This document shows positions 2,797 to 55,822 of a DNA stretch of 64,000 nt, in pieces (position 1 is the first letter of the stretch; the number at the start of each line of letters is the position of its first letter). Under the pieces are notes generated by a model that saw only the letters and a program-made list of their open reading frames with translations, did not search any database and had not been told where the DNA came from. The translations under genes were made by a program, and so were the position numbers. Location of the stretch: IMG/VR virus record IMGVR_UViG_3300030098_002339, positions 1-64,000 of that record; one strand, 5' to 3'. Source of the stretch: a virus.

Positions 2797-2942
2797 GTGA
2801 TACAATAGATATAGATAACATAAGATTTGCATTTTCAGAAACAGACTACTTCCAGCGTGAAGTAGAACGTTCTGTTAATGAATTAATATTAAAAAACAAC
2901 CAAGAAAATGACAAAACATTTATTTGGTTTATGGGAGGATAA
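2793..2942 (+). CDS. 49-aa conserved protein (not in ORF track)
   Basis: MSDTIDIDNIRFAFSETDYFQREVERSVNELILKNNQENDKTFIWFMGG; ATGA overlap; synonymous changes versus the copy at 46971. Confidence 0.8.
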   Translation: MSDTIDIDNIRFAFSETDYFQREVERSVNELILKNNQENDKTFIWFMGG

Positions 2943-2944
2943 TA

Positions 2945-5023
2945 ATGGCAGGATCATACGTAGGAAAATATGATACAACAGCTGCAAATAATACAGCTAC
3001 AGGAACAGGCTCGGTTAGTATAGCAGAAGGTATGTTACCTTCTAATGTTAACAATGCTATGAGAGATATCATGGCTGACATTAGGCAATGGTATAACTCG
3101 GCTGAATGGATTGAATATGGAGATGGAGCAGGAACATATACACCTGCTTATGCATCTGGTACAAGTTTTACAATTGCAAGTGCAGACGTTACATCTGCTT
3201 ATCACGTTGGCAGAAGAGTAAAAGCAGTTGGTTCTTCAACTGGAACAATTTACGGATCAATTACAGCAACAGCATTTTCAACTAATACAACAGTTACAGT
3301 TTCTTGGGATTCAGGTTCATTATCAAATGAATCTTTAACAATTTATATTGGTATTACAAGTGCAACAAACACTTCAATGCCAGAAACTCCATCTATTACT
3401 GGAGATTACACATTAGATGTATCTGGAGATATTGTATTAGATGCTGGTGGTGCTGATGTTGTTTTAAAAGATGATGGTACTCAATATGGTACTTTAACTA
3501 ACACTTCAGGAAATTTAATTATCAAATCTGGTAGTACAACAGCTTTAACATTTAGTGGAGCTAATGCTACCCTTGCTGGAGACTTAACAATTTCTGGTGA
3601 CGATTTAACTATGGGTACTAATACTTCAGGACATGTATTAGTAGCTGATGGTACAAACTTTAATCCAGTAGCAATTAGTGGTGATGTTACAATAGCTTCT
3701 AATGGAGCTGTAACAATTGGAAGTGGAACTGTTGAAACAGCTATGATTGCAGCTGATGCAATTACAGGAGCTAAAATTGCTGATGACGCAATTAATTCTG
3801 AACATTACACAGATGGAAGTATAGATACAGCTCATATAGCTGATTCACAAGTTACAGCAGATAAACTTGCAAGTAGTGCTGTTACTACAGCTAAAATAAA
3901 TGCTGACGCAGTAACAGGTGCTAAAATAGCAGATGATGCTATTAATAGTGAACACTACACAGATGCATCTATTGATACTGCACATATTGCAGATGATCAA
4001 GTAACTCAAGATAAAATAGCAGATGATGCTGTAGGTGCTGATCAATTAGCATCTAATGCTGTTGTTAACGCAAGTGTAGCATCTGGTGCTGCTATTGCAG
4101 ATTCAAAATTAGATACAATATCAACAGCTAACAAAGTTAGTTTAGCTGCATTAGATATAGATGGTGCTTCAGCTATTGGCGAAGCAGTTGTAGACGCTGA
4201 CTTATTTATAGTTGATAATGGTGCAGGCGGAACTAATAGAAAAGTTGCTGCTTCAGTATTAAAAACTTACGCACAAACTGGCGTATCTTCAGCAGCTGAT
4301 GATATTACAGTTGGTGATGCTGCTGTTACTATTGGTAATGGTAGTACATCTGCAGATATTACAATAGATTCAGGAGATGACATTGTTATTGATGCAGCTG
4401 GTGGAAATATAGAATTTAAAGATTCAGGTACACTTCAATTTACAATTGACATGGATGGCACAGCAGGTGTTCAAATTGTAAAACTTGGTGTTGATTCAGA
4501 TGATTTAGTTTTTCAACAATACGATGGTAATGAGGTTGTTCGTGTAGCTGATGATAGAAGATTATACTTTTATGACAAAGGTGGAGAATATATTTCATCT
4601 GATGGATCAGCTTTAACTTTAGCTTCTGGTGGAACAGCATTTGAATTACCAGCGGCAGACGGAAATGCAAACCAAGTTATTAAAACTGATGGATCTGGAA
4701 ATTTAGATTTCGTAGATATGTCAGGTGGAACATCTTGGCAAGCTATTCAAACTTCAGGGTTTACAGCAGCAGCTGGTAAAGGTTATCCTTGTAATACTAC
4801 AAGTGCAGCTTTTACAGTTACGCTTCCTGCTTCTCCAAGTTTAGGAGATGAAGTTACAGTTGTTGATTATGCAGGAACTGCTGATACAAATAATATTACA
4901 ATTGGAAGAAACTCAAAACCAATTCAAGGTGTTGCAGAAGATTTAACAGTAGCAACTGAAAGAGCTGCATTTACATTAGTCTTTGTTGATAACACTCATG
5001 GTTGGTTATTAAAAGATAAATAA
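2945..5023 (+). CDS. tail fibre protein (variant A)
   Basis: ggagg RBS before ATG 2945; A(V/I)T.AKIADDA repeats; C-terminal TLPASPSLGD...GWLL domain. Confidence 0.8.
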   Translation: MAGSYVGKYDTTAANNTATGTGSVSIAEGMLPSNVNNAMRDIMADIRQWYNSAEWIEYGDGAGTYTPAYASGTSFTIASADVTSAYHVGRRVKAVGSSTGTIYGSITATAFSTNTTVTVSWDSGSLSNESLTIYIGITSATNTSMPETPSITGDYTLDVSGDIVLDAGGADVVLKDDGTQYGTLTNTSGNLIIKSGSTTALTFSGANATLAGDLTISGDDLTMGTNTSGHVLVADGTNFNPVAISGDVTIASNGAVTIGSGTVETAMIAADAITGAKIADDAINSEHYTDGSIDTAHIADSQVTADKLASSAVTTAKINADAVTGAKIADDAINSEHYTDASIDTAHIADDQVTQDKIADDAVGADQLASNAVVNASVASGAAIADSKLDTISTANKVSLAALDIDGASAIGEAVVDADLFIVDNGAGGTNRKVAASVLKTYAQTGVSSAADDITVGDAAVTIGNGSTSADITIDSGDDIVIDAAGGNIEFKDSGTLQFTIDMDGTAGVQIVKLGVDSDDLVFQQYDGNEVVRVADDRRLYFYDKGGEYISSDGSALTLASGGTAFELPAADGNANQVIKTDGSGNLDFVDMSGGTSWQAIQTSGFTAAAGKGYPCNTTSAAFTVTLPASPSLGDEVTVVDYAGTADTNNITIGRNSKPIQGVAEDLTVATERAAFTLVFVDNTHGWLLKDK

Positions 5024-6012
5024 TGGCAACTTACAGAAAAGTCGGTGGCACTAGGGTTAAAACCTATAGTAGCGATCCCCCAACAGCATATCCATCAGCA
5101 TGGGAAGGTAATTTATATTACAATTCTTCTGATGGACAATTTAAGTTTCAAACTTTAGGTGCAGGATCTTGGTCAAGCGGTGGAACTATGAATTCTGGTA
5201 GAACAACTAAACAAAGTGCTGGAACTGGAAATGATAACGTAATAGTTGCTGGGGGTTACGATGCTTCTTCTTCACCACCAACTGCTCCTAGAACTTTATC
5301 TGAAAGTTACAATGGAACAGCTTGGACTGAAACTTCAGAAAATAATGATGGAAGACAATTTGGTGGTGGTTGTGGAACAAATACAGCTGCTATAATTATG
5401 GGAGGCGATCCAAGTTCTTTTTTAGGTGCAACTGAATCATGGAATGGTTCTAGTTGGTCAGAAGAAGCTGATTTAAATACAGGACGTAATCAAAATGAAG
5501 GATCTGGAACTTCTACAGCAGCATTATGTGTAGCTGGTGGAAATCCTGGAGCAGTTTCTAATGTAGAATCATGGAATGGAAGTGCTTGGACAGAAACATC
5601 AACTGATTTAAATACAGCAAAAAAATATGTGTGGGCAACTGGAAGTAATACAGCCTGTTTGGCTTCAGGAACTCCCGCAACTACAGAACAATTTAATGGC
5701 TCATCTTGGACAGAGGTTACAGAATCTACTACTGACCACCGCTCAGGTGCAGCTTCAGGAATATATACAGATTGTATAGTTTTTGGTGGAGATAATGGAC
5801 CAGGACAAGTAGCTAAAACAGAACAATGGAATGGTTCATCTTGGACTGAAGGTAATGATTTAGCAACAGCGAGATCATATCTTGGAGGATCAGGTAACAC
5901 TCCAAATTCAACAACAGCAATAGCTTTTGGTGGGTCAGGATTACCAGCTGAAACAGGTGCAACAGAAGAATGGGCATTAGGACACACACTTAAAAAGGTA
6001 ACAACAAGTTAA
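5023..6012 (+). CDS. Kelch-like beta-propeller protein A1 (one propeller), putative receptor-binding
   Basis: about 6 repeats of GG...E.WNGSSWTE..DLNTAR. Confidence 0.75.
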   Translation: MATYRKVGGTRVKTYSSDPPTAYPSAWEGNLYYNSSDGQFKFQTLGAGSWSSGGTMNSGRTTKQSAGTGNDNVIVAGGYDASSSPPTAPRTLSESYNGTAWTETSENNDGRQFGGGCGTNTAAIIMGGDPSSFLGATESWNGSSWSEEADLNTGRNQNEGSGTSTAALCVAGGNPGAVSNVESWNGSAWTETSTDLNTAKKYVWATGSNTACLASGTPATTEQFNGSSWTEVTESTTDHRSGAASGIYTDCIVFGGDNGPGQVAKTEQWNGSSWTEGNDLATARSYLGGSGNTPNSTTAIAFGGSGLPAETGATEEWALGHTLKKVTTS

Positions 6013-6032
6013 TAGAATTAAAGGAGGAAACT

Positions 6033-6338
6033 ATGGCATATAAATATACTGTTAAAGAAAACTGGGGTAAAAATTTTTTTACTCACGAAGAAAGAAAACA
6101 GATGTATCTTGCAGGTCATCCTGGTAATGTTTGGGTTGTTGATGACAATATCTTTGGCGATCAATGGATTGGCAAAATTGGCGGAACAACTAAAACTAAA
6201 GCAGAAGCTCAAGCTATTGTAGACGGTGAAATTGAAGACGCTCAAGATGCTTGGGATGCAAACAATGTTGATGGCGAATCATCAGATGAAAAAATTGCAA
6301 GACTTGGAGCTAAACCAGTTAAATACAATCTACCATAA
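6033..6338 (+). CDS. small propeller-associated protein
   Basis: aaggagg RBS; G.PGNVWV and TK.EAQAIV motifs shared with 52214. Confidence 0.8.
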   Translation: MAYKYTVKENWGKNFFTHEERKQMYLAGHPGNVWVVDDNIFGDQWIGKIGGTTKTKAEAQAIVDGEIEDAQDAWDANNVDGESSDEKIARLGAKPVKYNLP

Positions 6339-6349
6339 GGAATTAATTA

Positions 6350-8191
6350 ATGACTACCTATAAAGGTATAAAAGGATTAGGAATACAAAATGTAACTTCT
6401 GATGCTATTTCTTCTCAAATGGGAGGAGGTACATGGGCTTCTGGTGGAAGTTTAAATACAGATAGATGGGCTTTAGCTGGTGCAGGAACTCAAACTGCGG
6501 CTATTGCTATTAATGGACAAAATCCTAACGTAACTGATGTTGCAGAAACGTATGACGGAAGTAGTTGGACTGAAATAACAGAAAATAATACTGGAAGAAA
6601 TGTAGGAGCTGCTGCTGGAACTTCTACAGCTACTATATTTTTTGGTGGATATACAGGCACAGCATATACAGCAGACGCAGAAACTTGGAATGGAAGTTCT
6701 TGGACTGAAGGTACAAATTTAAATACTGCTAGAGGAGAAATGGGTGGTGCAGGACAAGCAAATACAGCAGCTTTAGCATTTGGTGGAGACACACCTGGTA
6801 GAACAGGAGCTACAGAAATTTGGAATGGTTCTTCGTGGACAGAATCAGGAGATTTATCAGTAGCAACAAAACATATAAAAGGAACAGGAACAAGTACTGC
6901 TGGTGTAGCAGTTGGAGGCACACATCCAGATAACTCAATAGTTGGAGATGTCGAAACTTTTAATGGTACTGCTTGGTCAGAAATAGCTGAAATAAATACT
7001 GCAAGATTTCAAACCGCTGCTTCAGGTACAACTACGTCAACTTTAGTTTTTGGAGGAATGAGTGCTGCTACTACAGCTACAGTTAATACGGAATCGTATG
7101 ATGGTTCTACATGGACTGAAGTTGCTAATTTAGCTACAGGAAGAGGATTTGTTGGCAGTATTTCTGGTAGTTCAGTTGCAGCTTCTGCTATATTTGGAGG
7201 AACAACTAATGCTGGTACTCCAGGAGATACAGCAGCTACAGAAGAATGGTCAGCACCCGCAACAATCAGACAATTTAATATAGGCGACATATACTATAAC
7301 GCAGACCCATCATCAGGTGTTATAAAATATGTTGGATATGGCACAGGAGCTTGGGCTTCTGGAGGAAATTTAAACACGCCAAGAAATGATTTAGATGGTT
7401 CAGGTTCATTAACAGCAGGACTTGCTTTTGGTGGAAATCCTGCAACAGGTGTAACTGAAGAATATAATGGAAGTGCATGGACAGAATCAGGAGATTTAAA
7501 CACATCCAGAAGGGCTATAGCAGGTTTTGGTACACAAACAGCTACAATAGCCTCATTTGGTGGAGAAAATCCTTATAACGATGAAACAGAACAATACAAT
7601 GGATCTACTTGGAGTGAGATAGCTGAAGTTAATACAGCAGGTGGTGGTTCACCTGGTGGTGCTGGAACAACTACAGCAGGTTTATTTTTTGGTAGAAGAA
7701 AAACTCCAGTTGCTACAAAAGGTGGAGAAACAGAATTATGGAATGGATCATCTTGGGCAGAACAATCAGATTTAAATACTGCTCGATGGGCAATAGGTGG
7801 ATTAGGAACTTCAACAGCTGCTTTAGCAATTGGTGGAGCACCCCCTCATTATGATACTGTAGAACAATGGAATGGATCTTCGTGGACTGAAATTGCTGAA
7901 ATTAACACAGCTAGAAGTCAGGGAGGTGCAGCAGGTACAACGACAGATGGTTTGTATTTTGTTGGAGAAGCAAGTCCAGGTCCTCAAAATATAACAGAAT
8001 CTTGGAATGGTACTGCTTGGACTGAAATAGCTGATGCATCAGCAGGTGCAGGTAAAGTTGCAGATTCTGACTCAAGTGCTAAAAGTGCTTTCTTTGCTGG
8101 TGGAGATGGTCCTCCAGGTAGTGCAGTAGCAACAACAGAAGAATGGAATGTACCAACAGCACTTCAAACACTAGCGAGTACAAACGCATGA
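6350..8191 (+). CDS. Kelch-like beta-propeller protein A2 (two propellers)
   Basis: about 12 repeats in two blocks separated by a GDIYYN linker. Confidence 0.75.
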   Translation: MTTYKGIKGLGIQNVTSDAISSQMGGGTWASGGSLNTDRWALAGAGTQTAAIAINGQNPNVTDVAETYDGSSWTEITENNTGRNVGAAAGTSTATIFFGGYTGTAYTADAETWNGSSWTEGTNLNTARGEMGGAGQANTAALAFGGDTPGRTGATEIWNGSSWTESGDLSVATKHIKGTGTSTAGVAVGGTHPDNSIVGDVETFNGTAWSEIAEINTARFQTAASGTTTSTLVFGGMSAATTATVNTESYDGSTWTEVANLATGRGFVGSISGSSVAASAIFGGTTNAGTPGDTAATEEWSAPATIRQFNIGDIYYNADPSSGVIKYVGYGTGAWASGGNLNTPRNDLDGSGSLTAGLAFGGNPATGVTEEYNGSAWTESGDLNTSRRAIAGFGTQTATIASFGGENPYNDETEQYNGSTWSEIAEVNTAGGGSPGGAGTTTAGLFFGRRKTPVATKGGETELWNGSSWAEQSDLNTARWAIGGLGTSTAALAIGGAPPHYDTVEQWNGSSWTEIAEINTARSQGGAAGTTTDGLYFVGEASPGPQNITESWNGTAWTEIADASAGAGKVADSDSSAKSAFFAGGDGPPGSAVATTEEWNVPTALQTLASTNA

Positions 8192-9996
8192 CGAAATATA
8201 TAGAAATAAAAGGACATTCAATACAATCAGTAGATACTGATCCTGTGGTTTATGCTGGAGCATGGGCTAGTGGAACAGCTCTTAATACAGCAAGACAAAA
8301 TCTTCATGGAACTGGAACACAAACATCAGGTTTAGTTTGTGGAGGAGATGCACCACCTCCTGTTAGCGGTAGAACTGAAGAATATGATGGTAGTTCTTGG
8401 ACAGAAAGCGGAGATTTTAATACATCAAGACAATATAATGCTACTGTAGGATCACAAACAGCAGCTATAACTAATGCAGGTCAAACATCTACTGCTGTAG
8501 CAAATGTTGAAACTTACAATGGATCAACTTGGACTGAAACAGGAGATGTCAATACAGCTAGATATGGTTCTGGAGCAGCAGGATCAACCACAGCAACTCT
8601 TATTGCTGGAGGAGTAGGTGGTACAGCAAACGCTGAAACTTTTGATGGTTCAAGTTGGACTGAAGTAGGGGATTTAAATAATGGAAGAGCTTATATGGGA
8701 TATGCTGGTCAAGCTCCACAAACTGCTGCATTAGTTTTTGGTGGTGGACCAGGAGGTAATGCAAATGTTGAATCTTGGGATGGCTCAAGTTGGACTGAAT
8801 TAGCAAATTTAAATGTAGCTATGCAAGCAGGAGCAGGAGCAGGGATACAAACTTCAGCGCTTTATTTTGGTGGAGCAAATCCTGGACAACCTTCTGTTGC
8901 AGGAACAGAAAGTTGGGACGGAAGTGCTTGGACTGAAGTTGCTGATATGGGAACAGCAAGAGGTGATCTTTCAGGTTTTGGTTTAGGTTCTGCAGCAGTA
9001 GCAGCAGGAGGAAATCAATCTCCAAAAGGTCAAACAGAAGAATGGTCTTTCCCATCAACACCAGCAGTACAACTAGGACAAGTTTGGTTTAATACAGGTT
9101 CATCAACACTTAAAGGATATGCACAACAAGGAACTGGAACATGGTCATCAGGCGGAAATGCAAATACTGCTAGAGGTAATGGATTTTCTTTTGGTTCACA
9201 AACAGCAGGAATTTTTGCATCAGGTTATACTGGATCAAATGTAGATAATGTAGAAAATTATAATGGATCATCTTGGACTGAAATAGCAGAAGTTAATACT
9301 GCTAGAAGAGAGGGAGCAGGATTTGGTACTTCTACTGCTGGATTAGTTTTTGGTGGACGACCTCCAATAGCAACTATAACAGAATCTTGGAATGGAAGTA
9401 GTTGGACAGAAACAGCAGATTTAAATACAGCTAGAGCAGATAGTCATATAAGAGCTGGAACATCAACAGATGGAATATGGGCAGGTGGACAAGATGGAAG
9501 TCCAGCTTCAGAAACATATTTAGTAGTTAAAACCGAAAAATGGAATGGTAGTGCGTGGTCCGAAGTAGGAGATTTGAATACTGGAAGAGAAGCAGGGGGA
9601 AATGCTGGAACAAGCTCTTCTTATGCTTTAGCAGTAGGAGGTAATCCACCATCTCCAGGTGGTATTGTAGAATCTTGGGATGGAAGCTCTTGGACCGAAG
9701 TAGGAGATTTAAATACAGCACGATCTTGGTGTACAGGTAGTGGTGGTAGTAATACAGATTCAATAAATTTTGGTGGTAGAACACCAGGAAGTGTAAACGA
9801 AAATAAAACCGAATCTTGGAATGGAAGTTCATGGACAGAAGTTGCAGATATGGCAACAGCTAGATATACACAAGGAAGTTCATCCAATGGAACTACAAAA
9901 ACTGGTTTGTGTATAATGGGAAATAATGGAAGTTATATAACAACTACAGAAGAATGGACAGTTCCATCTTCAACCAAGACGCTAACAGTATCATAG
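8188..9996 (+). CDS. Kelch-like beta-propeller protein A3 (two propellers)
   Basis: start moved to the ATGA overlap at 8188 (MTKYIEIKG matches paralog N-termini); about 12 repeats. Confidence 0.75.
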   Translation: MTKYIEIKGHSIQSVDTDPVVYAGAWASGTALNTARQNLHGTGTQTSGLVCGGDAPPPVSGRTEEYDGSSWTESGDFNTSRQYNATVGSQTAAITNAGQTSTAVANVETYNGSTWTETGDVNTARYGSGAAGSTTATLIAGGVGGTANAETFDGSSWTEVGDLNNGRAYMGYAGQAPQTAALVFGGGPGGNANVESWDGSSWTELANLNVAMQAGAGAGIQTSALYFGGANPGQPSVAGTESWDGSAWTEVADMGTARGDLSGFGLGSAAVAAGGNQSPKGQTEEWSFPSTPAVQLGQVWFNTGSSTLKGYAQQGTGTWSSGGNANTARGNGFSFGSQTAGIFASGYTGSNVDNVENYNGSSWTEIAEVNTARREGAGFGTSTAGLVFGGRPPIATITESWNGSSWTETADLNTARADSHIRAGTSTDGIWAGGQDGSPASETYLVVKTEKWNGSAWSEVGDLNTGREAGGNAGTSSSYALAVGGNPPSPGGIVESWDGSSWTEVGDLNTARSWCTGSGGSNTDSINFGGRTPGSVNENKTESWNGSSWTEVADMATARYTQGSSSNGTTKTGLCIMGNNGSYITTTEEWTVPSSTKTLTVS

Positions 9997-9998
9997 AC

Positions 9999-10027
9999 TT
10001 GCTATTTTCTATTAAAAATAGTATTAA
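9999..10027 (+). promoter_or_regulatory. putative sigma70-type promoter, near-leaderless, for the oxygenase cassette
   Basis: TTGCTA-17nt-TATTAA, ATG 6 nt later, no SD; equivalent element at 54336. Confidence 0.5.
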
Positions 10028-10033
10028 TTTTGC

Positions 10034-10705
10034 ATGAGCAAATCAGAAAAAAGAAATATACAAATAGTAGCCGAAACAGAATCTAAATATTTAACTAAAA
10101 TATTAGATCAACAAGATGTTAAAGAATTTAAGAAACTTATTCCTGAATTAAAAGATACTTGGAAAAAGAAACAAATGTTTCGTACAGAAACTGAAATGAG
10201 ATTTTCTGTATTATCAGACAATAAGTATCCAACTAAAGCTGCAAAGTATTGGCAATCAGTTAGAGAACAAAATACTCATTTTGAAAATCTTATGCATTTA
10301 TCTTTTGATGCTAGAAAAAACGCAGTAGAAATTAAAAAGTTAGAGAAAAAAATAGAACAAGAAAAAGACAAACTAGAAAGAGAATTGCTAGAAATAGAAT
10401 TAGAACAAAAGATCTATAATCAAGCAAGTATGGAATTAGTTGCTAAACATAGAATGAGAGAAGTAGCAACTTGGTCTAAACTTAAAAAAGAGTTTGATGA
10501 TGGAAACTTTGATAAAGAAAATGTAAATACTCATCAAGCTGATTCTTACATGTTAAGATTACAACATCAAAAAGATACACTAACACCAGGATCTTCCCAA
10601 CCTGAAGTCTTTAATGTTCTTGGTCAATTACATACTTTAGAAAGAGTTAGAAAATCAGGCGAGTTATTACCTAAAGGGAAAGAGAAAAAGAAACTTGCAA
10701 AATGA
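10034..10705 (+). CDS. coiled-coil protein heading the oxygenase cassette
   Basis: KQMFRT.TEM.FSVL.D.KYPT.AAKYWQ motif conserved with 54373; E/K-rich helix. Confidence 0.8.
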   Translation: MSKSEKRNIQIVAETESKYLTKILDQQDVKEFKKLIPELKDTWKKKQMFRTETEMRFSVLSDNKYPTKAAKYWQSVREQNTHFENLMHLSFDARKNAVEIKKLEKKIEQEKDKLERELLEIELEQKIYNQASMELVAKHRMREVATWSKLKKEFDDGNFDKENVNTHQADSYMLRLQHQKDTLTPGSSQPEVFNVLGQLHTLERVRKSGELLPKGKEKKKLAK

Positions 10706-11361
10706 ATTTCGACTTTGTCTATTTAGGACAAACTGTTCTCAAGTATCAAGTACCTCAAGAAGTCTTTAATTATTTACAAAAGTTATACGAAGTTCAAAAG
10801 AAACAATTACCTAAAGCTAATAAACAATTAGTTGGTAAAATTAAAGATGAAGTTTCATTGTATTATTCAGGTAAAGATTCTGAAAAAATGCATAGACATA
10901 ATTTTGTTTCTGAAGATGTATTAAAATGGTTTTATACTATTTTTAAACATTATTTAGATTGGAATAAAGTTCGTGAATATAATATAAAAATTAACTCTAT
11001 TTGGGTTAATGAAATGAAAGCTCACGAATATAATCCAGTACATATTCATCAAGGTATGTTATATACGGGTTTATCATCTGTAATGATTTTGAAATTACCA
11101 AAAGATTATGGTAAAGAATATTCAGCAGAAGAAAAACCAATGAATGGTAGATTACAAATTATTGGAGCATCAGCAGGGCAATTTGCTAAAACTGATTATT
11201 CTCCAAATATGCAAGTAGGAGATTTCTATATCTTTCCTTATGACATGAGGCATTGCGTTTATCCATTTAATAGAACAAAAGAAAAACGTAGAACATTAGT
11301 TTGTAATGTAGATGTAGATTATAATCCAGTTTCTTCAAGAACAGCAGAGGGATTTAAATGA
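10702..11361 (+). CDS. 2OG-Fe(II) oxygenase (HxH type)
   Basis: WVN...YNPVHIH...IFP...HCVYPF...RRTL. Confidence 0.85.
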   Translation: MNFDFVYLGQTVLKYQVPQEVFNYLQKLYEVQKKQLPKANKQLVGKIKDEVSLYYSGKDSEKMHRHNFVSEDVLKWFYTIFKHYLDWNKVREYNIKINSIWVNEMKAHEYNPVHIHQGMLYTGLSSVMILKLPKDYGKEYSAEEKPMNGRLQIIGASAGQFAKTDYSPNMQVGDFYIFPYDMRHCVYPFNRTKEKRRTLVCNVDVDYNPVSSRTAEGFK

Positions 11362-11942
11362 TTCCTTTGATGCCTAGATGGCAGTCTTATATTGCTACAA
11401 CAACTGGAGCTATGTTTACACCTGAACAATGTAAACTAATTATACAAGCTGGTCATCGACAAAAACCTGAACAGGCTAAAGTTGGTGGAGGCAAGGGCGG
11501 TAAACAAGATACTAAGAAACGAGTTACAACTATATCTTGGATACCTTTTGCTAAAATGCCAGAGATGTATAAAGTAATAGAAAATCAATTATCTATCGTT
11601 AATTTAAATCACTTTGGTTTTGATGGAATAAAATTAACAGAACCTGCTCAATTTACTGAGTATCCTAAAAGAGGTTTTTATGATTGGCACATGGATTTAA
11701 ATGCTTTTGGTCAAACAGGTGAACATCCTATTCGTAAAATATCCATGACTTGTTTGTTATCAGATCCTTCTGAATTTACTGGAGGAGATCTTGCATTTGA
11801 AGAACATGCTAATAACAAAATACAATTAAAACAAGGTCAAGCAATATTCTTTGCTTCCTTTATGAAACACCGAGTAGAACCTGTTAAAAAGGGAATTAGA
11901 AGATCTCTCGTTATGTGGTTTGGTGGTCCACCTTTTAAATGA
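11358..11942 (+). CDS. 2OG-Fe(II) oxygenase, prolyl-4-hydroxylase/PKHD-like
   Basis: YDWHMD, RKISMT, GGDL, HRVEPV..G.RRSLVMW. Confidence 0.9.
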   Translation: MIPLMPRWQSYIATTTGAMFTPEQCKLIIQAGHRQKPEQAKVGGGKGGKQDTKKRVTTISWIPFAKMPEMYKVIENQLSIVNLNHFGFDGIKLTEPAQFTEYPKRGFYDWHMDLNAFGQTGEHPIRKISMTCLLSDPSEFTGGDLAFEEHANNKIQLKQGQAIFFASFMKHRVEPVKKGIRRSLVMWFGGPPFK

Positions 11943-12553
11943 AGCGAGAAATATTATTTCCAACTCCAATGTATTGGAAAGATATACCTCACGCTAAAGA
12001 ACTTAATAAATACTTATTTAAACACATTAAGGCTTGGTATAAACAAGATATAAAAAAAGGTAGATCTACAGGAGAGTTTAAAACTAATTCAGGTTTTGGT
12101 TGGCATAGTTCAACTGACATGAATGACAAAAAAGAATATCAACCTTTAATACAAGAACTGTTTAAAATGGCAGAAGAATGTAATAAAGATTATGGTGTTC
12201 AACCTAAGTTAGGTTTAGGTAATATGTGGGCTAATATCAATCCTACATATAGTTATAATAAAACCCATACACATCCTAATTCATTATGGTCTGGAGTTTA
12301 TTATATTAAAGTACCTAAAAATTCTGGTAAATTATTTTTAGAAGATCCAAGACCAGGACCTAATACGCATATGCCAAAACGTGTAGATAATTTACCTAAA
12401 GAACTTTGGAGAGTTGTAGCTTACGAAGCTAAAGAAGGTAGAATGATATTTTTTCCATCTTGGCAACCTCATGGTGTTGATATTAATATGAACACAGATA
12501 AAGGTGAAAAGAATTGGAGAATATCTGTTTCTTATAACTTTATACAAGTATGA
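11939..12553 (+). CDS. 2OG-Fe(II) oxygenase (TIGR02466-like)
   Basis: MWANIN...HTHPNS.WSGVYY...FPSW.PHGV...RISVSYN. Confidence 0.9.
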   Translation: MKREILFPTPMYWKDIPHAKELNKYLFKHIKAWYKQDIKKGRSTGEFKTNSGFGWHSSTDMNDKKEYQPLIQELFKMAEECNKDYGVQPKLGLGNMWANINPTYSYNKTHTHPNSLWSGVYYIKVPKNSGKLFLEDPRPGPNTHMPKRVDNLPKELWRVVAYEAKEGRMIFFPSWQPHGVDINMNTDKGEKNWRISVSYNFIQV

Positions 12554-13194
12554 GTTTTAAAACTAAAAAGTATCAAGTTATTAAACAAGCTATATCAAAA
12601 GATTTAGCTAATTTTGTTTTTAACTATATGCTTTTGCAAGAATCAGCAGTAGATCTTATGTTAAAACATAATAAGATTAATCCTGCTAATCCTTTAATAG
12701 GTAGCTGGACAGATAAACAAGTACCAGGTGCTTATTCTAAATATGGTGATTGGGTTATGGAAACCTTATTATTATATGTTATGCCTATTATGAAAGCTAA
12801 AACTGGATTAGATTTAATACCTACTTATTCATATACAAGGATTTATAGAAAAGGTAGTATATTAAAAAGGCATAAAGATAGACCTAGTTGTGAGATTTCT
12901 ACAACATTACATTTAGGTGGAGATCCCTGGTCTATATTTATAGACCCTACTGGAAGTGATAATGTTATTGATGAATATAAAAATATTCACAAACCTGGTG
13001 CACCTAAAGGTGTACAAGTTGATTTAAAACAAGGTGATATGTTAATATATTCAGGATGTGAGCTTGAACATTGGAGAAAGCCATTTAAAGGTAATGTATG
13101 TTCACAAGTGTTCTTACATTATAATCATGCAAATGGTAAGTTTGCTCAGTCTAATTTATACGATAAAAGACCTATATTAGGAGTTACAAAATGA
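12550..13194 (+). CDS. 2OG-Fe(II) oxygenase-like protein
   Basis: PTYSY.RIY, LKRHKDRPSCEISTT, GD.LIY.GC.LEHWR, QVFLHY. Confidence 0.85.
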   Translation: MSFKTKKYQVIKQAISKDLANFVFNYMLLQESAVDLMLKHNKINPANPLIGSWTDKQVPGAYSKYGDWVMETLLLYVMPIMKAKTGLDLIPTYSYTRIYRKGSILKRHKDRPSCEISTTLHLGGDPWSIFIDPTGSDNVIDEYKNIHKPGAPKGVQVDLKQGDMLIYSGCELEHWRKPFKGNVCSQVFLHYNHANGKFAQSNLYDKRPILGVTK

Positions 13195-13418
13195 AACAAA
13201 TATTAATAGCATTACAAAAGTTATATGAGTCAAAAGTATTAGAAGCAGATCATCAGATTAAATTATATAGTAATCAATCTTCTGCTGTAAACGAACATTC
13301 AGATTTAGCAAAAGAATTAGATAAATGGATTACTATTAAATCTGATAATGAAGGAAAGTTAAGACAAGTTTTAACTTATATTCCTAAAGAATCTAATACT
13401 AAAAAAGATGGCAAATAA
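13191..13418 (+). CDS. small helical hypothetical protein
   Basis: ATGA overlap; homolog at 58259. Confidence 0.75.
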   Translation: MKQILIALQKLYESKVLEADHQIKLYSNQSSAVNEHSDLAKELDKWITIKSDNEGKLRQVLTYIPKESNTKKDGK

Positions 13419-13734
13419 TTATAAATTTACAGGTGTAGCATTAGCTACATCATCTGAAACAACTCTATTAACTGCAGCTGCTGATACAACTGTAGTTATT
13501 AGATCTATTAGAGTTACTAATAATACTTCTAATACACCTACAATATCGTTAGATGTAGCAGACAATTCTGCAAGTGCTGAATATACTATTTTAAGAACAC
13601 AGACACTTTCAGCTAATACTGCAGTAGAATTATTATCAGTACCTTTAATCCTAGAAGAATCTGATGCATTAAAAGCAACAATGAGCTCAACAGATTCAAC
13701 ACATATAGGAATAAGTTACTTGGTTATTTCATGA
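13408..13734 (+). CDS. small beta-rich putative virion protein
   Basis: MANNYK...LEESDALKA; near-identical homolog at 58479. Confidence 0.7.
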   Translation: MANNYKFTGVALATSSETTLLTAAADTTVVIRSIRVTNNTSNTPTISLDVADNSASAEYTILRTQTLSANTAVELLSVPLILEESDALKATMSSTDSTHIGISYLVIS

Positions 13735-32788: not shown

Positions 32789-32978
32789 TTTTCTCCTTTT
32801 TATAAACATCAAATTCATTATTAATTTTATTAAGAATATAATTCATTGCAATAGTGCCACCTAATACAACTAAAGCTTTTTCTTTATTGTTATATCTATC
32901 TGTAAATTCTTTATATTCATCTTCAGACTTTGGAGTCCAAAAGAAATTATTTAAAGTAAATTTAATATTATTTTTCAT
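32778..32978 (-). CDS. hypothetical early protein
   Basis: aaggag RBS. Confidence 0.65.
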   Translation of the reverse strand: MKNNIKFTLNNFFWTPKSEDEYKEFTDRYNNKEKALVVLGGTIAMNYILNKINNEFDVYKKEKNEK

Positions 32979-33159
32979 TTTTCTCCTTTTCTAGTGTTAA
33001 TCTCTCTCCAGTATATGCTTCAGCTTCCATTAACATTTTTAAAGCTGTCATATAATCTTGAAGAGTAGCTCCTTCTTTTAAAATTTGAACTCTAATTCTA
33101 CCGAGTCCACATTTTATAAATTCCTTACCTGCGTAAGGATCTTTTAGTTCTTCACTCAT
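32968..33159 (-). CDS. hypothetical early protein
   Basis: overlap-coupled within the operon. Confidence 0.6.
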   Translation of the reverse strand: MSEELKDPYAGKEFIKCGLGRIRVQILKEGATLQDYMTALKMLMEAEAYTGERLTLEKEKNEK

Positions 33160-33346
33160 TTTGCATATTCCTTATATTTGGTTGTTCTCCACATTTTACG
33201 AATATTTTCCATTGTTCTCTATCATCAAAACCTGAAAGATTAAATATATCCATTGCATTTTCATAGTTTTCACAGTTAGTAAATAGAAATATATTATGTT
33301 TGATATTATGAAATATATATACACTATTTTCATTATCTTTACTCAT
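33152..33346 (-). CDS. hypothetical early protein
   Basis: aaggag RBS before MSKDNE. Confidence 0.6.
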   Translation of the reverse strand: MSKDNENSVYIFHNIKHNIFLFTNCENYENAMDIFNLSGFDDREQWKIFVKCGEQPNIRNMQNE

Positions 33347-33500
33347 TAGTTTATTCTCCTTTTTATATATTTTGCTACTAACTCGACCCATCTAAACCAT
33401 TCGTTTATATAGTGTCTTCTTTTACCTTGACGTTCTTTCTCTACAACTCTTAAGGCTTTGTCAGTAGCTTTATTTAACACTCTTAATTGTTCATCGTTTT

Positions 33501-33713
33501 TCATTTAAATTTAACTGCTTTCTCTAACTCTTTAACTTTTTCGTTAGTATGTTGCATAATTTTCTTTAAATCTTCTGCAATATTTTCAATTGAAGAAGTA
33601 TTTATACTTGCAAATCTTCTTTGCATCTCTTTATAAGCAGCTAATTCACCATGTTTTCTAGCTTCACTATGTAACTCAGTTACAATTTGTATTTGTTTTT
33701 GTATATCAAACAT
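33501..33713 (-). CDS. hypothetical early protein
   Basis: aagga RBS. Confidence 0.65.
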   Translation of the reverse strand: MFDIQKQIQIVTELHSEARKHGELAAYKEMQRRFASINTSSIENIAEDLKKIMQHTNEKVKELEKAVKFK

Positions 33714-33773
33714 ATTATTCCTTTCAATTTTAGGGCTAAAGCCCTACACTAGATAGGGCTTATGCCAGTTTAT

Positions 33774-34067
33774 TTAAGCAACTTTAGTATTCTTTTCAGA
33801 TTCAGATATCTCTTCAAGTTTCTTCGCAACTTGTTTAGCATCTCTAATCTTATCTAAAGCAGCATTTGTTGCTATGAATACAGTAGCTAACATAGATGTT
33901 TGATTAAACTGTGGTAACTGTTTGTATCTTGGATCTTTACTTACCATTTCATAAGTTTGGAAGTATTGTTCCATAAACCATCTAGTCATTCCACCAGTTT
34001 TTTCAGCCACTCTGTTTTTCTGACTTGGTTTCATACCATTCTGTGTCTTCGACTTTTCCATTAGCAT
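33774..34067 (-). CDS. hypothetical early protein
   Basis: aggag RBS; followed by the hairpin at 33731-33761. Confidence 0.65.
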   Translation of the reverse strand: MLMEKSKTQNGMKPSQKNRVAEKTGGMTRWFMEQYFQTYEMVSKDPRYKQLPQFNQTSMLATVFIATNAALDKIRDAKQVAKKLEEISESEKNTKVA

Positions 34068-34209
34068 CTCCTTTCTTTTTTATTTCAAACGGAAACTCTA
34101 ATTTAGCAGGCATATTCTTTTGAATACATCTACTTAATCCAATTAGAGCCCTAATAGGAAATGTAAATGATGACACAAGTGTATCACCTACTTTTTCTAT
34201 TCTTTTCAT
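34003..34209 (-). CDS. hypothetical early protein
   Basis: aaggag RBS. Confidence 0.55.
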   Translation of the reverse strand: MKRIEKVGDTLVSSFTFPIRALIGLSRCIQKNMPAKLEFPFEIKKKGDANGKVEDTEWYETKSEKQSG

Positions 34210-34390: not shown

Positions 34391-34391
34391 T

Positions 34392-35103: not shown

Positions 35104-35135
35104 ACACTCTATCCTTTCTTCCGAATTTTTTTAGT

Positions 35136-35346: not shown

Positions 35347-35354
35347 GATTGACA

Positions 35355-47123: not shown

Positions 47124-49412
47124 ATGGCAGGATCATATATAGGCAAATACGATACAACAGCTGCTAATAATACTGCAACAGGCACAGGTTCGGTTAGTAT
47201 AGCTGAAGGTATGCTGCCTTCTAATGTTAATAATGCTATGCGTGATATTATGGCGGACATTAGGCAATGGTATAATTCAGCTGAATGGATTGAATACGGA
47301 GATGGAGCAGGATCATATACACCTGCTTATGCATCAGGAACAAGTTTTACAATTGCAGGTGCAGATGTAACTTCTGCTTACCATGTAGGTAGAAGAGTTA
47401 AAGCAGTAGGTTCGTCTACAGGAACAATTTACGGATCAATTACTGCTACAAGTTTTTCAACAAATACAACAGTTACAGTTTCTTGGGATTCAGGTTCACT
47501 ATCTAGTGAATCTTTAACAATTTATATTGGTATTACAAGTGCAACAAACACTTCAATGCCAGAAACTCCATCTATTACTGGAGATTATACATTAGATGTA
47601 TCAGGCGATATTATCCTAGATGCTGATGGCGGAGATGTATTCTTTAAAGATGGTGGTACTACCTTTGGAAGTGCTACTAATTCTTCAGGTAATTTAATTA
47701 TTAAATCAGGTACAACAACAGCTTTAACATTTAGTGGAGCTAATGCTACCCTTGCTGGAGATTTAACAATCTCTGGTGATGATTTAACAATGGGTACTAA
47801 TACTTCAGGAATGTTATTAGTAGCTGATGGTACAAATTTTAATCCAGTAGCAGTTAGTGGAGATGTTACTATGGCTTCTAATGGAGCAGTAACAATTGCT
47901 TCAACAGCTGTAGAAAATTCTATGTTAGCTGGATCTATTGCTGATAGCAAATTATCTACAATTTCAACAGCAGATAAAGTTGCTGGTGGAGCTATTCAAA
48001 TTGATAGTGGTACTGATGGTACATCTATTACATTAGCAGATACAGATAAATTTTTAGTTGATGATGGTGGTACAACAAAATATGTTAATGCCTCTCAAAT
48101 TAATAGTTATGTAAGTGCTTCCGTTGCAGCAGACGATCTTGGATCTGGTGATGCCGCAATTAATCTAACAACTTCATCTGGCAATATTACAATTGATGCA
48201 GCAGCTAATGATAGTGATATTATATTTAAAGGAACAGATGCAACTTCCGATATTACAATGCTTACATTGGATGGAAGTGAAGCAGGACACGCAACTTTTA
48301 ATAGTCACGTATCTGTTGGTGGATCTAATAACGAATTAAGATTTTATGAAGGTGCAAACTATATAGGTTTTGAAGCACCCGCTTTATCAGGAGATCAAAT
48401 ATGGGTATTACCTGCAGCAGATGGATCTTCGGATCAAGTATTAAAAACAGATGGCTCAGGTAATTTAGGTTGGGCTTCTGTTACAGGTACAATTACTGCT
48501 TTAAATAATCAATCAGCTAATCGATTAACTACAATCGGTTCAACAACAACACAGTTAGATGGTGAAGCAAATTTAACTTTCACAGGTTCAGCATTAACTT
48601 GTATAGGAACAATTACAGTTGGTGTAGATGACACAGGACATGACGTTAAGTTCTTTGGTGCAACAGCTAGTAGATACTGGTTATGGGATGAATCAGCAGA
48701 TGGTGTAGTACAACAAGGTACATTAACTGTTGGAGTTGACGATACTGGATATGATGTAAAATTCTTTGGAGCTACAGCAAGTGCTTATATGCAATGGGAT
48801 GAATCAGAAGATGATTTAATCCTAGGTGGTGCTGCAAGAATAGTTGTCCCAGAAGGACAATTAGTATTAGGTAGTACAGCTGTAAGTTCAACTGCAGCAG
48901 AATTAAATTTATTAGATGGTGTTTCAGGATTAGTACAAGCAGATCTAACTAAATTAGCAGCAGTTAATTCTACAGACGCAGAACTTAATATATTAGATGG
49001 TTCAGCTAAATCTACATCTTCAATTACATTAGCAGATACTGATGCTTTAATTGTTATAGATGGGAATACAACAAAACAAATTCCTGTTTCAGATATTAAA
49101 ACATACAATCCAGGTGGAACTGCATGGCAAGCTGTTGTTACAGGTAATACAACAATGGTTTCTGGTAGAGGTTATTTTGTTAATACAACTTCAGCTGCAA
49201 TTACAATGACATTACCTGCATCTCCTTCATTAGGAGATAGTGTAACGGTTATTGATTATGCAGGAACAGCAGATTCAAATAATATTACGATAGGAAGAAA
49301 CTCTCAAAAAATTCATGGAGCTTCTGAGGATTTAACAGTAGCAACAGAACGAGCTGCCTTTACATTAGTATTTACAGATTCTACTCAAGGTTGGCTCTTA
49401 ACGGAGAAATAA
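47124..49412 (+). CDS. tail fibre protein (variant B)
   Basis: N- and C-terminal domains shared with 2945; different middle with two TVGVDDTG.DVKFFGATAS repeats. Confidence 0.8.
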   Translation: MAGSYIGKYDTTAANNTATGTGSVSIAEGMLPSNVNNAMRDIMADIRQWYNSAEWIEYGDGAGSYTPAYASGTSFTIAGADVTSAYHVGRRVKAVGSSTGTIYGSITATSFSTNTTVTVSWDSGSLSSESLTIYIGITSATNTSMPETPSITGDYTLDVSGDIILDADGGDVFFKDGGTTFGSATNSSGNLIIKSGTTTALTFSGANATLAGDLTISGDDLTMGTNTSGMLLVADGTNFNPVAVSGDVTMASNGAVTIASTAVENSMLAGSIADSKLSTISTADKVAGGAIQIDSGTDGTSITLADTDKFLVDDGGTTKYVNASQINSYVSASVAADDLGSGDAAINLTTSSGNITIDAAANDSDIIFKGTDATSDITMLTLDGSEAGHATFNSHVSVGGSNNELRFYEGANYIGFEAPALSGDQIWVLPAADGSSDQVLKTDGSGNLGWASVTGTITALNNQSANRLTTIGSTTTQLDGEANLTFTGSALTCIGTITVGVDDTGHDVKFFGATASRYWLWDESADGVVQQGTLTVGVDDTGYDVKFFGATASAYMQWDESEDDLILGGAARIVVPEGQLVLGSTAVSSTAAELNLLDGVSGLVQADLTKLAAVNSTDAELNILDGSAKSTSSITLADTDALIVIDGNTTKQIPVSDIKTYNPGGTAWQAVVTGNTTMVSGRGYFVNTTSAAITMTLPASPSLGDSVTVIDYAGTADSNNITIGRNSQKIHGASEDLTVATERAAFTLVFTDSTQGWLLTEK

Positions 49413-52213: not shown

Positions 52214-52507
52214 ATGGCAAATGACATCTTTAATTACTGCGTAGCAACGAACACTGGAAAGGGTTTCATCACACATGATGATAGCCGAAGATTCTGGATT
52301 AGTGGCAATCCTGGTAATGTATGGGTTGCAACAGACTGTGTAGAATCAAGACATTGGATTGCAAGAAACAATGGTGTTTCTAAAACTAAAGAAGAAGCAC
52401 AAGCTATTGTAACAGCAGAAGTTGAAGCAGCACAAGCAGCTTGGGATGCTTTATCTGATGAAGAAAAAGCATTAACATCAAGACCAGGCGACATAACTCT
52501 TCCCTAA
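52214..52507 (+). CDS. small propeller-associated protein (variant B)
   Basis: homolog of 6033..6338. Confidence 0.8.
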   Translation: MANDIFNYCVATNTGKGFITHDDSRRFWISGNPGNVWVATDCVESRHWIARNNGVSKTKEEAQAIVTAEVEAAQAAWDALSDEEKALTSRPGDITLP

Positions 52508-54372: not shown

Positions 54373-55059
54373 ATGAAAGAGAAAAGAAACATACACGAAC
54401 TTATTGTAAAAGAAGAACCTCATCTTCATGAAATATTAGATCCTGCACAAGTTGCTAAATTTAAAGAATTAACAAACGAACTTAGAGATACCTGGACAAA
54501 GAAACAAATGTTCAGAACAAAAACAGAGATGGAATTTTCTGTTTTAAATGATGCTAAATATCCAACCAATGCTGCTAAGTATTGGCAATGTGTGAGAGAA
54601 CAAAATACTCACATGGAAAACTTAATGCATTTATCCTTTGATGCTCGTAAAAATGATATTGAAATAAAACAAAAATTAAAAGAACTAGAAGAAGAAAAAG
54701 ACGAATTAAAAAAAGAACTCATACAAGTAGAAATAGATGAAAAAACTTATAGTAAAGCTAGTATGCAACTTGTTGCAGCTCATCGTATGAGAGAAGTTAC
54801 TGAATGGTCTAACTTTAAAAAGATTTATAATGATGGTACTTTTGATGATAAGAATGTAGATACACACCAACTATTATCATACAAAAAGATCATGAAGAAT
54901 AGAAAGAATACATTAACTCCTGGATCTTCACAACCTGAAGTCTTTAATGTATTAGGTCAATTGCAAACAATTGAACGGGTGGAAGAAGAACGAAAAGCCC
55001 TTGGACACGAAAAGAAAAAGGCTATAAGTGAAACACCTAAATACGGAAAACAAGGCTAA
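54373..55059 (+). CDS. coiled-coil protein heading the oxygenase cassette (variant B)
   Basis: homolog of 10034..10705. Confidence 0.8.
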   Translation: MKEKRNIHELIVKEEPHLHEILDPAQVAKFKELTNELRDTWTKKQMFRTKTEMEFSVLNDAKYPTNAAKYWQCVREQNTHMENLMHLSFDARKNDIEIKQKLKELEEEKDELKKELIQVEIDEKTYSKASMQLVAAHRMREVTEWSNFKKIYNDGTFDDKNVDTHQLLSYKKIMKNRKNTLTPGSSQPEVFNVLGQLQTIERVEEERKALGHEKKKAISETPKYGKQG

Positions 55060-55822
55060 ACAAATCTACTTTCTTTGTGCGATGCCAAGATCAGGGAATA
55101 CCTTATTTGCATCACTCATGAATCAAAATCCAGAGATTGCTGTTACCGCCAATAGTATCACCTTGGAAATTATGAAAGATTTATTTCTTCTTAAAAAAAT
55201 AGATGCCTTTCAAAATTTTCCTGATGAACAATCTTTAGATAATGTTATGGATGAAGTTTATAATCTTTATTATAAACATTGGAATTATAAAGTTATTATT
55301 GATCGAGGACCTGTTTGTACATCTAGCAATCTAAAGATCATGCAAAAACATTTTAAACAACCTATACGATGTATTGTATTAGTTAGAGATTTATTAGATG
55401 TTTTAGCTTCTTATATTAAATGGTTTGAAACTGAGCCAACTGCTTTTTTAAATCAATTAAAAACAATAGATGAAAAATTAAGTCGACTTATGCACAAGTA
55501 TGGAGCAATAGCAAAAGGACTTTTATCTATTCAGTATTTACTTCAGCATCCTGAGATGGCTGTGTTTATTAAGTATGATGATTTAGTTGTTAATCCAGAA
55601 CAAGAATTAAGAAAAGTCTACACTTTTTTAAATCTCCCCTATTTTCCGCATAAGTTTATTGATCTAGATCAAATTACCGTGAATGGTTTACAATATAATG
55701 ATAGTATTACAGGTAAAAATATGCACACCATTAGAACACAAAATGTTCACAAGGTTGATAATCCATATAAGAATATGATACCAGAGAGATTTATTAAGGA
55801 ATATGGACACATCCGATTTTAA
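55028..55822 (+). CDS. sulfotransferase family protein
   Basis: PRSGNTL (5'-PSB loop), RD..DVLAS (3'-PB), YDDLV.NP...L..VY.FL. Confidence 0.85.
   Translation: MKHLNTENKAKQIYFLCAMPRSGNTLFASLMNQNPEIAVTANSITLEIMKDLFLLKKIDAFQNFPDEQSLDNVMDEVYNLYYKHWNYKVIIDRGPVCTSSNLKIMQKHFKQPIRCIVLVRDLLDVLASYIKWFETEPTAFLNQLKTIDEKLSRLMHKYGAIAKGLLSIQYLLQHPEMAVFIKYDDLVVNPEQELRKVYTFLNLPYFPHKFIDLDQITVNGLQYNDSITGKNMHTIRTQNVHKVDNPYKNMIPERFIKEYGHIRF

Follow-up and report, generated by a model that had tools for sequence, protein, structure and literature searches.

Why does a marine phage carry four different 2-oxoglutarate- and iron(II)-dependent (2OG-Fe(II)) oxygenases among its fibre genes? Few unexplained genes are as common in ocean phages as oxygenases of this type, which are usually classed as metabolic. 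The question is raised by positions 5023-13194 of the window, by which we mean the whole stretch of DNA that was analysed: the first 64,000 bases of the 88,284-base IMG/VR record IMGVR_UViG_3300030098_002339. An earlier note on this DNA had described there three Kelch-like beta-propeller genes, a conserved coiled-coil gene and four oxygenases (here termed A1-A3, CC and Ox1-Ox4), and had proposed that the enzymes hydroxylate exposed loops of receptor-binding propellers. The gene content and order of this block are borne out, and a second copy lies at 49416-58262. What is new is the block formed by the propellers, a small gene between them that had been missed (small101), CC and Ox1, and the transfer of this block as a whole between phage families. 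The trio Ox2-Ox4 is known already but unexplained.

Two scans of IMG/VR anchored on the propellers recovered 150 loci, corresponding to 131 groups after loci with an identical open reading frame (ORF) were merged. All dereplicated counts refer to the 64 groups whose sequence extends at least 3.5 kb past the last propeller. In 58 of them the propellers are accompanied by CC, by an orthologue of Ox1 and by two or more oxygenases, so the proposed co-occurrence of propellers and cassette holds from the propeller side. Three loci, with propellers of the deep-branching type to which L023 and L024 belong, have CC followed by Ox4- and Ox2-type genes only; one (the T4-like L093 group) has CC followed by the neck gene gp13; and two (L307 and L309) have neither CC nor an oxygenase. 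CC is found 3' of the last propeller in 62 of the 64 loci and accompanies propellers even without an adjacent oxygenase, as in the L093 group. Where at least 5.5 kb of downstream sequence is available, 24 loci have four oxygenase genes, three have five and three have two. Moreover, small101 is present in most propeller loci, and its cluster is confined to the four loci of the first set that bear propellers. A scan anchored on Ox1 returned the best 80 of at least 580 relatives, all with at least 68% identity; among these 80, CC lies upstream in all of the 39 loci that extend far enough, and a propeller in 30 out of 30. One locus, L084, has a sulfotransferase-Ox1-Ox4 cassette about 6 kb upstream of the propellers, and thus shows co-occurrence without adjacency. 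Neither the propellers nor CC have a match among 50,697 cultured-phage records, a collection from which records close to the window may be missing, and Ox1 is represented in it by paralogues only, with at most 29% identity. An apparent match to Ox1 in the T4-like locus L383 was likewise a 27%-identical paralogue. In everything sampled, CC, small101 and Ox1 are propeller-specific.

The block is the divergent island between genomes A and B, the two related genomes of which the record is composed. Proteins encoded in the flanks are 82-92% identical between A and B, those of the block far less so (propellers 35-39%, CC 62%, Ox1-Ox4 50-70%). On the left, the island begins within the tail-fibre gene, whose N-terminal part belongs to the conserved backbone and whose C-terminal part is already within the variable island; between A and B, nucleotide identity ends near position 3719. 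On the right it ends at p108. We compared 25 p108-anchored relatives that also have the tail-fibre N-terminus, and the interval between the two is hypervariable. Two of the 25 have propellers, both together with small101, CC and two oxygenases; two have oxygenases with glycine-rich PF21722 proteins; and 21 gave no match to the window oxygenases, Pfam having been checked for a few ORFs only.

The propeller block is found in at least three backbones, which are recognized by their markers: the window type (p481 and TFib_N upstream, p108 downstream), the HTVC023P type (L073_725 downstream) and T4-like myoviruses (gp13, gp14 and gp15 downstream). The whole propeller-oxygenase block moves as a unit between podovirus and T4-like backbones. 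Within the 60-kb HTVC023P type, some members have three to four glycine-rich fibre paralogues and then Ox2-Ox4, others the propeller block and then Ox1-Ox4, and the glycine-rich paralogues stand where the window has propellers. These glycine-rich fibres (L148, 11-5424; also L141, L146, L016 and L036) are about 450 aa long with about 25% glycine, contain a conserved 'GNTPPVSP' and lie just before Ox2-Ox4. L073 was assigned to the HTVC023P type because its contig is 60 kb long and its downstream markers recur in Pelagibacteraceae single-cell contigs that have an HTVC023P-matching Ox2-Ox3-Ox4 run; a marginal gp9/10 match (25.5 bits), which had suggested a myovirus, was outweighed by these markers.

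In the FastTree phylogeny of 157 Ox4 sequences, rooted on Lysobacterales homologues, 122 module-linked sequences from all three backbones fall under a single 123-leaf node (support 0.26; 94 HTVC023P-type, 4 window-type, 2 T4-like and 23 unassigned leaves), and the node that adds HTVC008M as sister has a support of 0.97. Ox4 genes beside glycine-rich fibres in HTVC023P-type loci form a separate clade of 13 (support 0.85). The Ox3 tree gives a similar but less clean split, with three T4-like exceptions. Thus, the oxygenases move with the fibre type and not with the backbone. Four ATGA-type overlaps connect the genes from CC to the gene after Ox4, and virion genes lie on both sides of the block. 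No promoter or terminator signal was detected between cassette and propellers: promoter-like sites (56 versus 67 expected from shuffles) and terminator-like sites (14 versus 7.4) show no clear excess, and the gene borders of the block are free of either.

The earlier note had treated the cassette as one propeller-specific unit. This does not hold, since orthologues of Ox2-Ox4 occur in phages without propellers. According to family models, HTVC023P encodes the Ox2, Ox3 and Ox4 types as gp65, gp66 and gp67, in the same order as the window; HTVC008M has them as gp72 (and gp69), gp70 and gp68; and Syn9 as gp50, gp48 and gp54. The same type of search finds no propeller, CC or Ox1 orthologue in any of the three. 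Relatives of Ox3 are present in 256 and relatives of Ox4 in 156 cultured-phage records, the latter with up to 54% identity (HTVC033P and HTVC023P). The trio Ox2-Ox3-Ox4 is general to marine phages. Among 75 T4-like loci examined, 31 have at least 3.5 kb upstream of gp14, and 11 of these 31 contain oxygenase genes without propeller or CC. One T4-like contig has Ox2 and Ox4 between uvsY and uvsW, and Syn9 has an array of about ten such oxygenase genes with two tryptophan halogenases. Tryptophan halogenase genes are found repeatedly beside the oxygenase arrays of T4-like marine phages (L271, which is Syn9, 32965-43144; L155, 11045-15346; HTVC008M gp78-gp79).

A genome scan with Ox4 detected 57 loci, of which the closest (40-68% identity) are phage-like contigs in bins and single-cell genomes. 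Several Ox4-bearing contigs are labelled Pelagibacteraceae, which fits a SAR11 host for HTVC023P-type relatives. Chromosomal Ox4 homologues with 33-36% identity are single-copy genes near trmD and mutS in Lysobacterales. In L180 (118-11106), on the chromosome of a Pseudomonadales metagenome-assembled genome, a 594-aa Ox4-like ORF, two PF13759 genes and one PF13640 gene lie together, next to genes for an OmpA protein, a TonB-dependent receptor, a beta-helix protein and a GT29-like glycosyltransferase. These enzymes thus also exist as a set in a context other than phage fibres.

The features of the block and its borders are listed in Table 1. Self-comparison of the record shows that genome A (1-44175) and genome B (44176-88284), each about 44.2 kb long, are collinear and arranged head to tail, with a nucleotide identity of 65-86%. 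Since the junction at 44176-44350 matches both the record start (1-175) and the record end (88110-88284), A and B are probably two related strains that were joined by the assembler through a terminal repeat of about 175 bp. What had been called two variants is therefore a gene set that is indeed present twice, but in two related phages within one record, which provide a single comparison and no independent replicates. In genome A, the head genes identified by PHROG matches are the terminase large subunit (38097), the portal (39401) and the major head protein (42780); the tail part comprises two virion structural proteins (680 and 1351), the tail fibre (2924), the module and, after a weak match to an ejection protein (14164), further genes without assignment. 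By DNA comparison, Pelagibacter phage HTVC106P is the closest cultured phage, with 68% identity over 37% of a 5.6-kb query of head genes. The window phage is a pelagiphage-like podovirus, and the block sits inside its late structural operon. The border protein p108 is 92% identical between A and B and belongs to the same family as HTVC106P gp53, which is annotated as 'virion structural protein'; p108 may be a small fibre-associated structural protein. Paralogues of p108 lie directly 3' of the tail-fibre gene in many relatives (L014-L054), and also occur in T4-like loci and in HTVC106P (gp46 and gp53).

Table 1. Coordinates of the propeller-oxygenase block and its borders in genomes A and B of the window.
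Feature	Genome	Position	Strand	Description
Tail fibre	A	2924..5023	+	PHROG tail-fibre families; likely start ATG 2945
Propeller A1	A	5023..6012	+	329 aa; single six-bladed Kelch-type propeller (blade parsing); phrog_27227, E = 2e-65
small101	A	6033..6338	+	101 aa; among the propellers
Propeller A2	A	6350..8191	+	613 aa; two tandem six-bladed propellers (blade parsing); phrog_27227, E = 2e-147
Propeller A3	A	8188..9996	+	602 aa from ATG 8188; two tandem propellers; phrog_27227, E = 9e-156
CC	A	10034..10705	+	223 aa; conserved, helical/coiled-coil; weak phrog_1409 match
Ox1	A	10702..11361	+	PF13759, 40.4 bits; H114-x-H116...H184
Ox2	A	11358..11942	+	PF13640 (P4H/PKHD-type), 56.5 bits; H111-x-D113...H171...R181
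Ox3	A	11939..12553	+	PF13759, 79 bits; NCBIfam TIGR02466, 130 bits; PDB 3bvc, E = 6e-12; H110-x-H112...H178...R194
Ox4	A	12550..13194	+	Probable double-stranded beta-helix (DSBH) oxygenase; phrog_2954, E = 3e-51; H108-x-D110...H174
p108	A	13408..13734	+	108 aa; conserved small structural-operon protein; right border of the island
Tail fibre	B	47124..49412	+	77% identical to A over the N-terminal 339 aligned residues only
Propeller B1	B	49416-50384	+	35-39% identity to the propellers of A (range for B1-B3)
Propeller B2	B	50384-52168	+	As B1
Small gene	B	52214..52507	+	97 aa; among the propellers; also missed earlier
Propeller B3	B	52517-54343	+	As B1
CC	B	54373..55059	+	62% identical to A
Sulfotransferase	B	55028..55822	+	PF13469, 50.3 bits; PF00685, 44.4 bits; absent from A
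Ox1	B	55803-56462	+	60% identical to A
Ox2	B	56459-57043	+	58% identical to A
Ox3	B	57040-57621	+	50% identical to A
Ox4	B	57618-58262	+	70% identical to A

The 'Kelch-like' label of the propellers stands, in that the repeats, the Gly-Gly (GG) doublet and a profile match to KLHL2 agree, the fold being predicted from sequence. Blade parsing gives six blades per unit of about 320 aa in all six propeller proteins of the window; B1 is a single propeller like A1 and all others are tandem doubles. A profile of 45 family members matches the solved Kelch domains of KLHL2 (E = 1.1e-30), KLHL3 (1.1e-26) and KEAP1 (about 1e-9). Each repeat has a GG doublet and conserved aromatic residues, with '...GG......E.WNGSSWTE' in the family consensus. 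The Pfam cut-off for Kelch was not reached: Kelch_3 scored 21.1 bits against 22 in A3 only, and no Kelch family was found in the other two window propellers scanned. All three propellers of genome A match phrog_27227 (E = 2e-65 to 9e-156), a PHROG of unknown function. This is a very large family: of 8,000 database clusters scored, at least 3,628 match at E <= 1e-5, and all of these are unnamed. The longest ORFs of A3 (from 8143) and B2 (from 50369) begin further upstream and overlap the preceding gene. The PHROG match of A3 begins at residue 16 of the long ORF, and there is an N-terminal motif common to the other propellers; because of these two features we place the starts at 8188 and 50384.

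CC has a mean column identity of 70% over 31 sequences. It has no relative in Pfam, and a profile search of the PDB sequences gave nothing significant. That it tracks the propellers even where no oxygenase follows fits a role as adaptor or chaperone. The sole long CC relative, considered as a possible fusion, shares only the N-terminal 110 aa or so and is uninformative. No Pfam or PHROG match was found for small101. The arrangement in which the propellers are followed directly by CC and four oxygenases is seen in genome A; in genome B, however, a sulfotransferase gene separates CC from Ox1. The sulfotransferase is an optional insert at this position, also found in 8 of 79 related loci (L063, L074, L076, L078, L081, L084, L091 and L102), and its nearest solved relatives are weak and mixed (CurM ST, 3.5e-4; TPST1, 0.01). 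A 107-aa ParB_N-like ORF is present in the cassette of some relatives.

For the oxygenases, the HxD...H...R motif that the earlier note had ascribed to the whole cassette fits Ox2 and Ox4, but Ox1 and Ox3 have HxH...H instead. The metal ligands are at least 97% conserved in the 123-147 unique sequences of each family (Ox1 147, Ox4 123), and the Pfam matches in Table 1 compare with a cut-off of 27 bits for PF13759 and PF13640. Against PDB, Ox2 is closest to PKHD-type hydroxylases (E = 1.2e-7), while the prolyl 4-hydroxylase (P4H) of Bacillus anthracis reaches just E = 0.098; its score against NCBIfam equivalogs is 63.2 bits where the cut-off is 143. The PDB relatives of Ox2 and Ox3 are uncharacterised proteins, those of Ox3 (3bvc and 2rg4) being from roseobacters. 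Profile searches of the PDB sequences with Ox1 and Ox4 gave nothing significant, and neither did hhalign comparisons with Ox2 (Ox4, E = 0.048; Ox1, E = 0.011). In Pfam and NCBIfam, none of Ox1-Ox4 matches a family with a defined metabolic reaction above cut-off. Finally, the database protein P0121 (381 aa), the sole long Ox3 relative, is a fusion of an Ox3-type PF13759 domain followed by an Ox2-type PF13640 domain, which hints that the two enzymes may act in one process.

Ox4 requires separate comment, since PHROGs and GenBank name its family 'ferrochelatase' (12550-13194 and 57618-58262). It matches no Pfam family, and its assignment relies on matches to phrog_2954 and phrog_3531 and on its look-alikes. 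Several features speak against the ferrochelatase name: H108-x-D110...H174 is kept, and the Atlas clusters identified as look-alikes by a language model carry PF13640, among them a cluster named 'putative ferrochelatase' in which 98% of the members have this domain. For these reasons Ox4 is a probable DSBH oxygenase, and the 'ferrochelatase' label on its family is probably wrong.

The proposal that the propellers are the substrate was founded on prolines in the loops after GG. Their enrichment is real, and all ten loop strings quoted in the earlier note were found. In the six window propellers, 61 of 95 prolines lie within 8 residues after GG, a zone that makes up 21% of the length (binomial p = 7e-20), as do 10 of the 12 PP dipeptides. 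Across 897 blades parsed from 192 propellers, proline frequency is 0.19 at position +2 after GG, 0.44 at +3 and 0.31 at +4, compared to 0.006 in the rest of the blade, and 'GG-x-x-P' appears in the family consensus for four of the six blades. The prolines are therefore a family-wide feature at a fixed position in otherwise variable loops. By homology with Kelch domains of the KEAP1 type, the loop after GG would presumably be on the ligand-binding face. The expectation that loop proline content tracks the cassette was not confirmed: it is 0.106 per loop residue in propellers without an adjacent cassette and 0.108 in the rest. The residues around PP are heterogeneous across propellers. A hydroxylation motif common to propellers and glycine-rich fibres was considered and discarded ([NT]PP.?SP in 4 of 423 propellers, TPP.?SP in 13 of 47 glycine-rich ORFs). 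We infer that the GG-x-x-P loops are first of all a structural signature; as modification sites they are no more than candidates.

How can these observations be reconciled? Our preferred reading, put forward tentatively, is that the block is a mobile module for host recognition whose propellers are served by CC and Ox1. The propellers would be distal receptor-binding proteins and take the place of the glycine-rich fibre paralogues seen in HTVC023P-type phages; CC would help to assemble or attach them. Ox1, produced at the same time, would act on the propeller-CC system, in the simplest case by hydroxylating a conserved feature of the propellers, and Ox2-Ox4 would act on a target that is independent of the fibre fold. 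A more explicit form, in which Ox1 and CC are a dedicated maturation system for the propellers and Ox2-Ox3-Ox4 hydroxylate fibre or tail proteins in general, appears unlikely. The interpretation of the earlier note is a special case of the module: all four oxygenases would hydroxylate Pro, Asp or Asn in the GG loops, with CC as adaptor. It is supported in part, by the co-occurrence and synteny of the block, its position in the structural operon with overlapping stop and start codons, the tracking of propellers by CC, the clustering of prolines at +2 to +4 and the probable membership of Ox2 in the P4H/PKHD family. However, Ox2-Ox4 orthologues serve phages without propellers, loop prolines are equally dense whether or not a cassette is adjacent, the context of PP is heterogeneous with no motif common to the glycine-rich fibres, and Ox1 and Ox3 lack the P4H triad. 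Judged on these sequence comparisons, we consider this special case improbable. Several points also weigh against the module itself. Mean column identity is 70-77% for the oxygenases and CC versus 45% for the propellers, and enzymes so much more conserved than the propellers cannot be reading variable loops. Linkage in a recombining island would, even if the genes shared no function, give the same synteny and tree pattern. The L093 group, L307 and L309 have propellers without an oxygenase in the 3-5 kb downstream, and L075, L068 and L414, with less downstream sequence, likewise show none. Ox4 was not found anywhere in the records of L307, L309, L068, L414 and L075, but all five are 3-37% complete and nothing can therefore be said about their whole genomes. 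Cellular homologues of the oxygenases lie in ordinary chromosomal contexts, and neither an oxygenase nor CC was found fused to a structural domain. Moreover, each scan kept the best 80 loci, so that the sample is close to the query and Ox1 relatives below 68% identity are outside it.

The strongest competitor takes linkage at face value. The oxygenases would be auxiliary genes whose products act on a metabolite or protein of the host (translation factors, 2-oxoglutarate-linked metabolism) and which reside in the fibre island as a hot spot of recombination and insertion, and Ox1 would be merely the paralogue nearest the propeller side. This agrees with the wide distribution of Ox2-Ox4 relatives without propellers, the Syn9 array with its two halogenases, the Ox2 and Ox4 genes between uvsY and uvsW, the cellular homologues including the single-copy Ox4 relatives of Lysobacterales, and the PF13759-PF13640 fusion, which suggests a shared pathway. 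In PMC9599517, too, the 2OG-Fe(II) genes of HTVC023P-type phages and their 'ferrochelatase' are classed as auxiliary metabolic. It is harder to square with coupled reading frames in a late structural operon, with the strict two-way association of Ox1 with CC and propellers, with L084, which keeps the cassette though separated from its propellers, and with the occurrence of the whole block in three backbones, and we regard it as somewhat unlikely. Distinctly unlikely, in our estimation, is that the enzymes and the optional sulfotransferase remodel the receptor or envelope, altering the host surface seen by the propellers and thereby blocking superinfection or preventing progeny from adhering to debris. 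Seroconversion genes next to tailspike genes are an analogy for such a function. The enzymes do co-vary with the type of receptor-binding protein, the sulfotransferase insert is present in B as well as 8 of 79 relatives, and L180 has the same three oxygenase families beside surface proteins and a glycosyltransferase; surface alteration is also what PMC7029224, in the part available, proposes for the glycosyltransferases of its 'host recognition cluster'. Yet the genes appear to be expressed late, together with virion genes, the solved relatives of the sulfotransferase are weak and mixed, and L180 is a single locus in a metagenome-assembled genome. The probability that remains beyond the module, mere linkage and remodelling falls to other functions of the oxygenases.

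The findings matter since they tie Ox1 and CC, in both directions, to a very large and unnamed family of Kelch-type propellers, and thereby name the partners for an experiment: propeller, CC and Ox1. If Ox1 and CC did mature the propellers and the trio did act on fibres, this would be the first case of a phage virion being hydroxylated post-translationally and would explain the abundance of oxygenase arrays beside fibre genes in SAR11 and cyanobacterial phages. Should fibres or receptors be modified by the enzymes, any prediction of host range for the most abundant marine phages would have to allow for this.

Our literature searches gave no paper connecting phage oxygenases with the modification of fibres, nor one on Kelch propellers in the fibres of marine phages, although supplements might list such clusters; in two papers that were checked, 'Kelch' proved to be the name of an author. 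The closest published case is that of the HTVC023P-type phages, in which eight non-orthologous 2OG-Fe(II) genes are co-located with 'ferrochelatase' and read as auxiliary metabolic, as far as the accessible text goes (Wittmers et al., 2022, PMC9599517). Their gp65, gp66 and gp67 are orthologous to Ox2, Ox3 and Ox4, lie in the same order beside fibre genes and belong to a backbone common to many of the loci analyzed here; the fibre region differs in having neither CC nor the Ox1 subfamily. In the text of PMC9599517, the ferrochelatase label is taken at face value and the words 'propeller' and 'Kelch' are absent. The second relevant system is the 'host recognition cluster' of pelagimyophages and cyanomyophages, described in the available text as a hypervariable island from the baseplate and fibre genes to the neck gene gp14 that contains fibres and enzymes (Zaragoza-Solas et al., 2020, PMC7029224). 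The T4-like loci L078, L130 and L395 carry the propeller block exactly there, and HTVC008M has five oxygenases at this place. The window phage, in contrast, is a 44-kb podovirus, and the enzymes named in that text are glycosyltransferases and radical SAM proteins, not oxygenases; nor does the part available describe a link between fibre type and enzyme subfamily.

Beyond phages, the propellers resemble the Kelch proteins KLHL2, KLHL3, KLHL12 and KEAP1 in their six repeats of about 45-48 aa, the GG doublet and the conserved Trp/Tyr (profile E = 1e-30 to 1e-9). They differ in being single or tandem-double, with a conserved N-terminal 'M-x-x-Y-K-x-I-K-G', no BTB/BACK domains and a proline-rich loop after GG. 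Hydroxylation of viral proteins is known from giant viruses: PBCV-1 has a prolyl 4-hydroxylase, and the collagen lysyl hydroxylase and glucosyltransferase L230 belongs to mimivirus, such enzymes modifying Pro- or Lys-rich repetitive viral proteins. To our knowledge this is the only precedent for the idea of the earlier note, and we know of no phage example. These are eukaryotic viruses with collagen-like or PAPK-type substrates. For CC, the comparison is with fibritin (wac) and the fibre chaperones gp57A/gp38 of T4. No sequence similarity between these and CC was found, and CC is more conserved than its presumed clients. Like wac, however, CC is a helical or coiled-coil protein encoded beside fibre genes, and in T4-like loci its gene lies just before gp13, the position of wac in T4.

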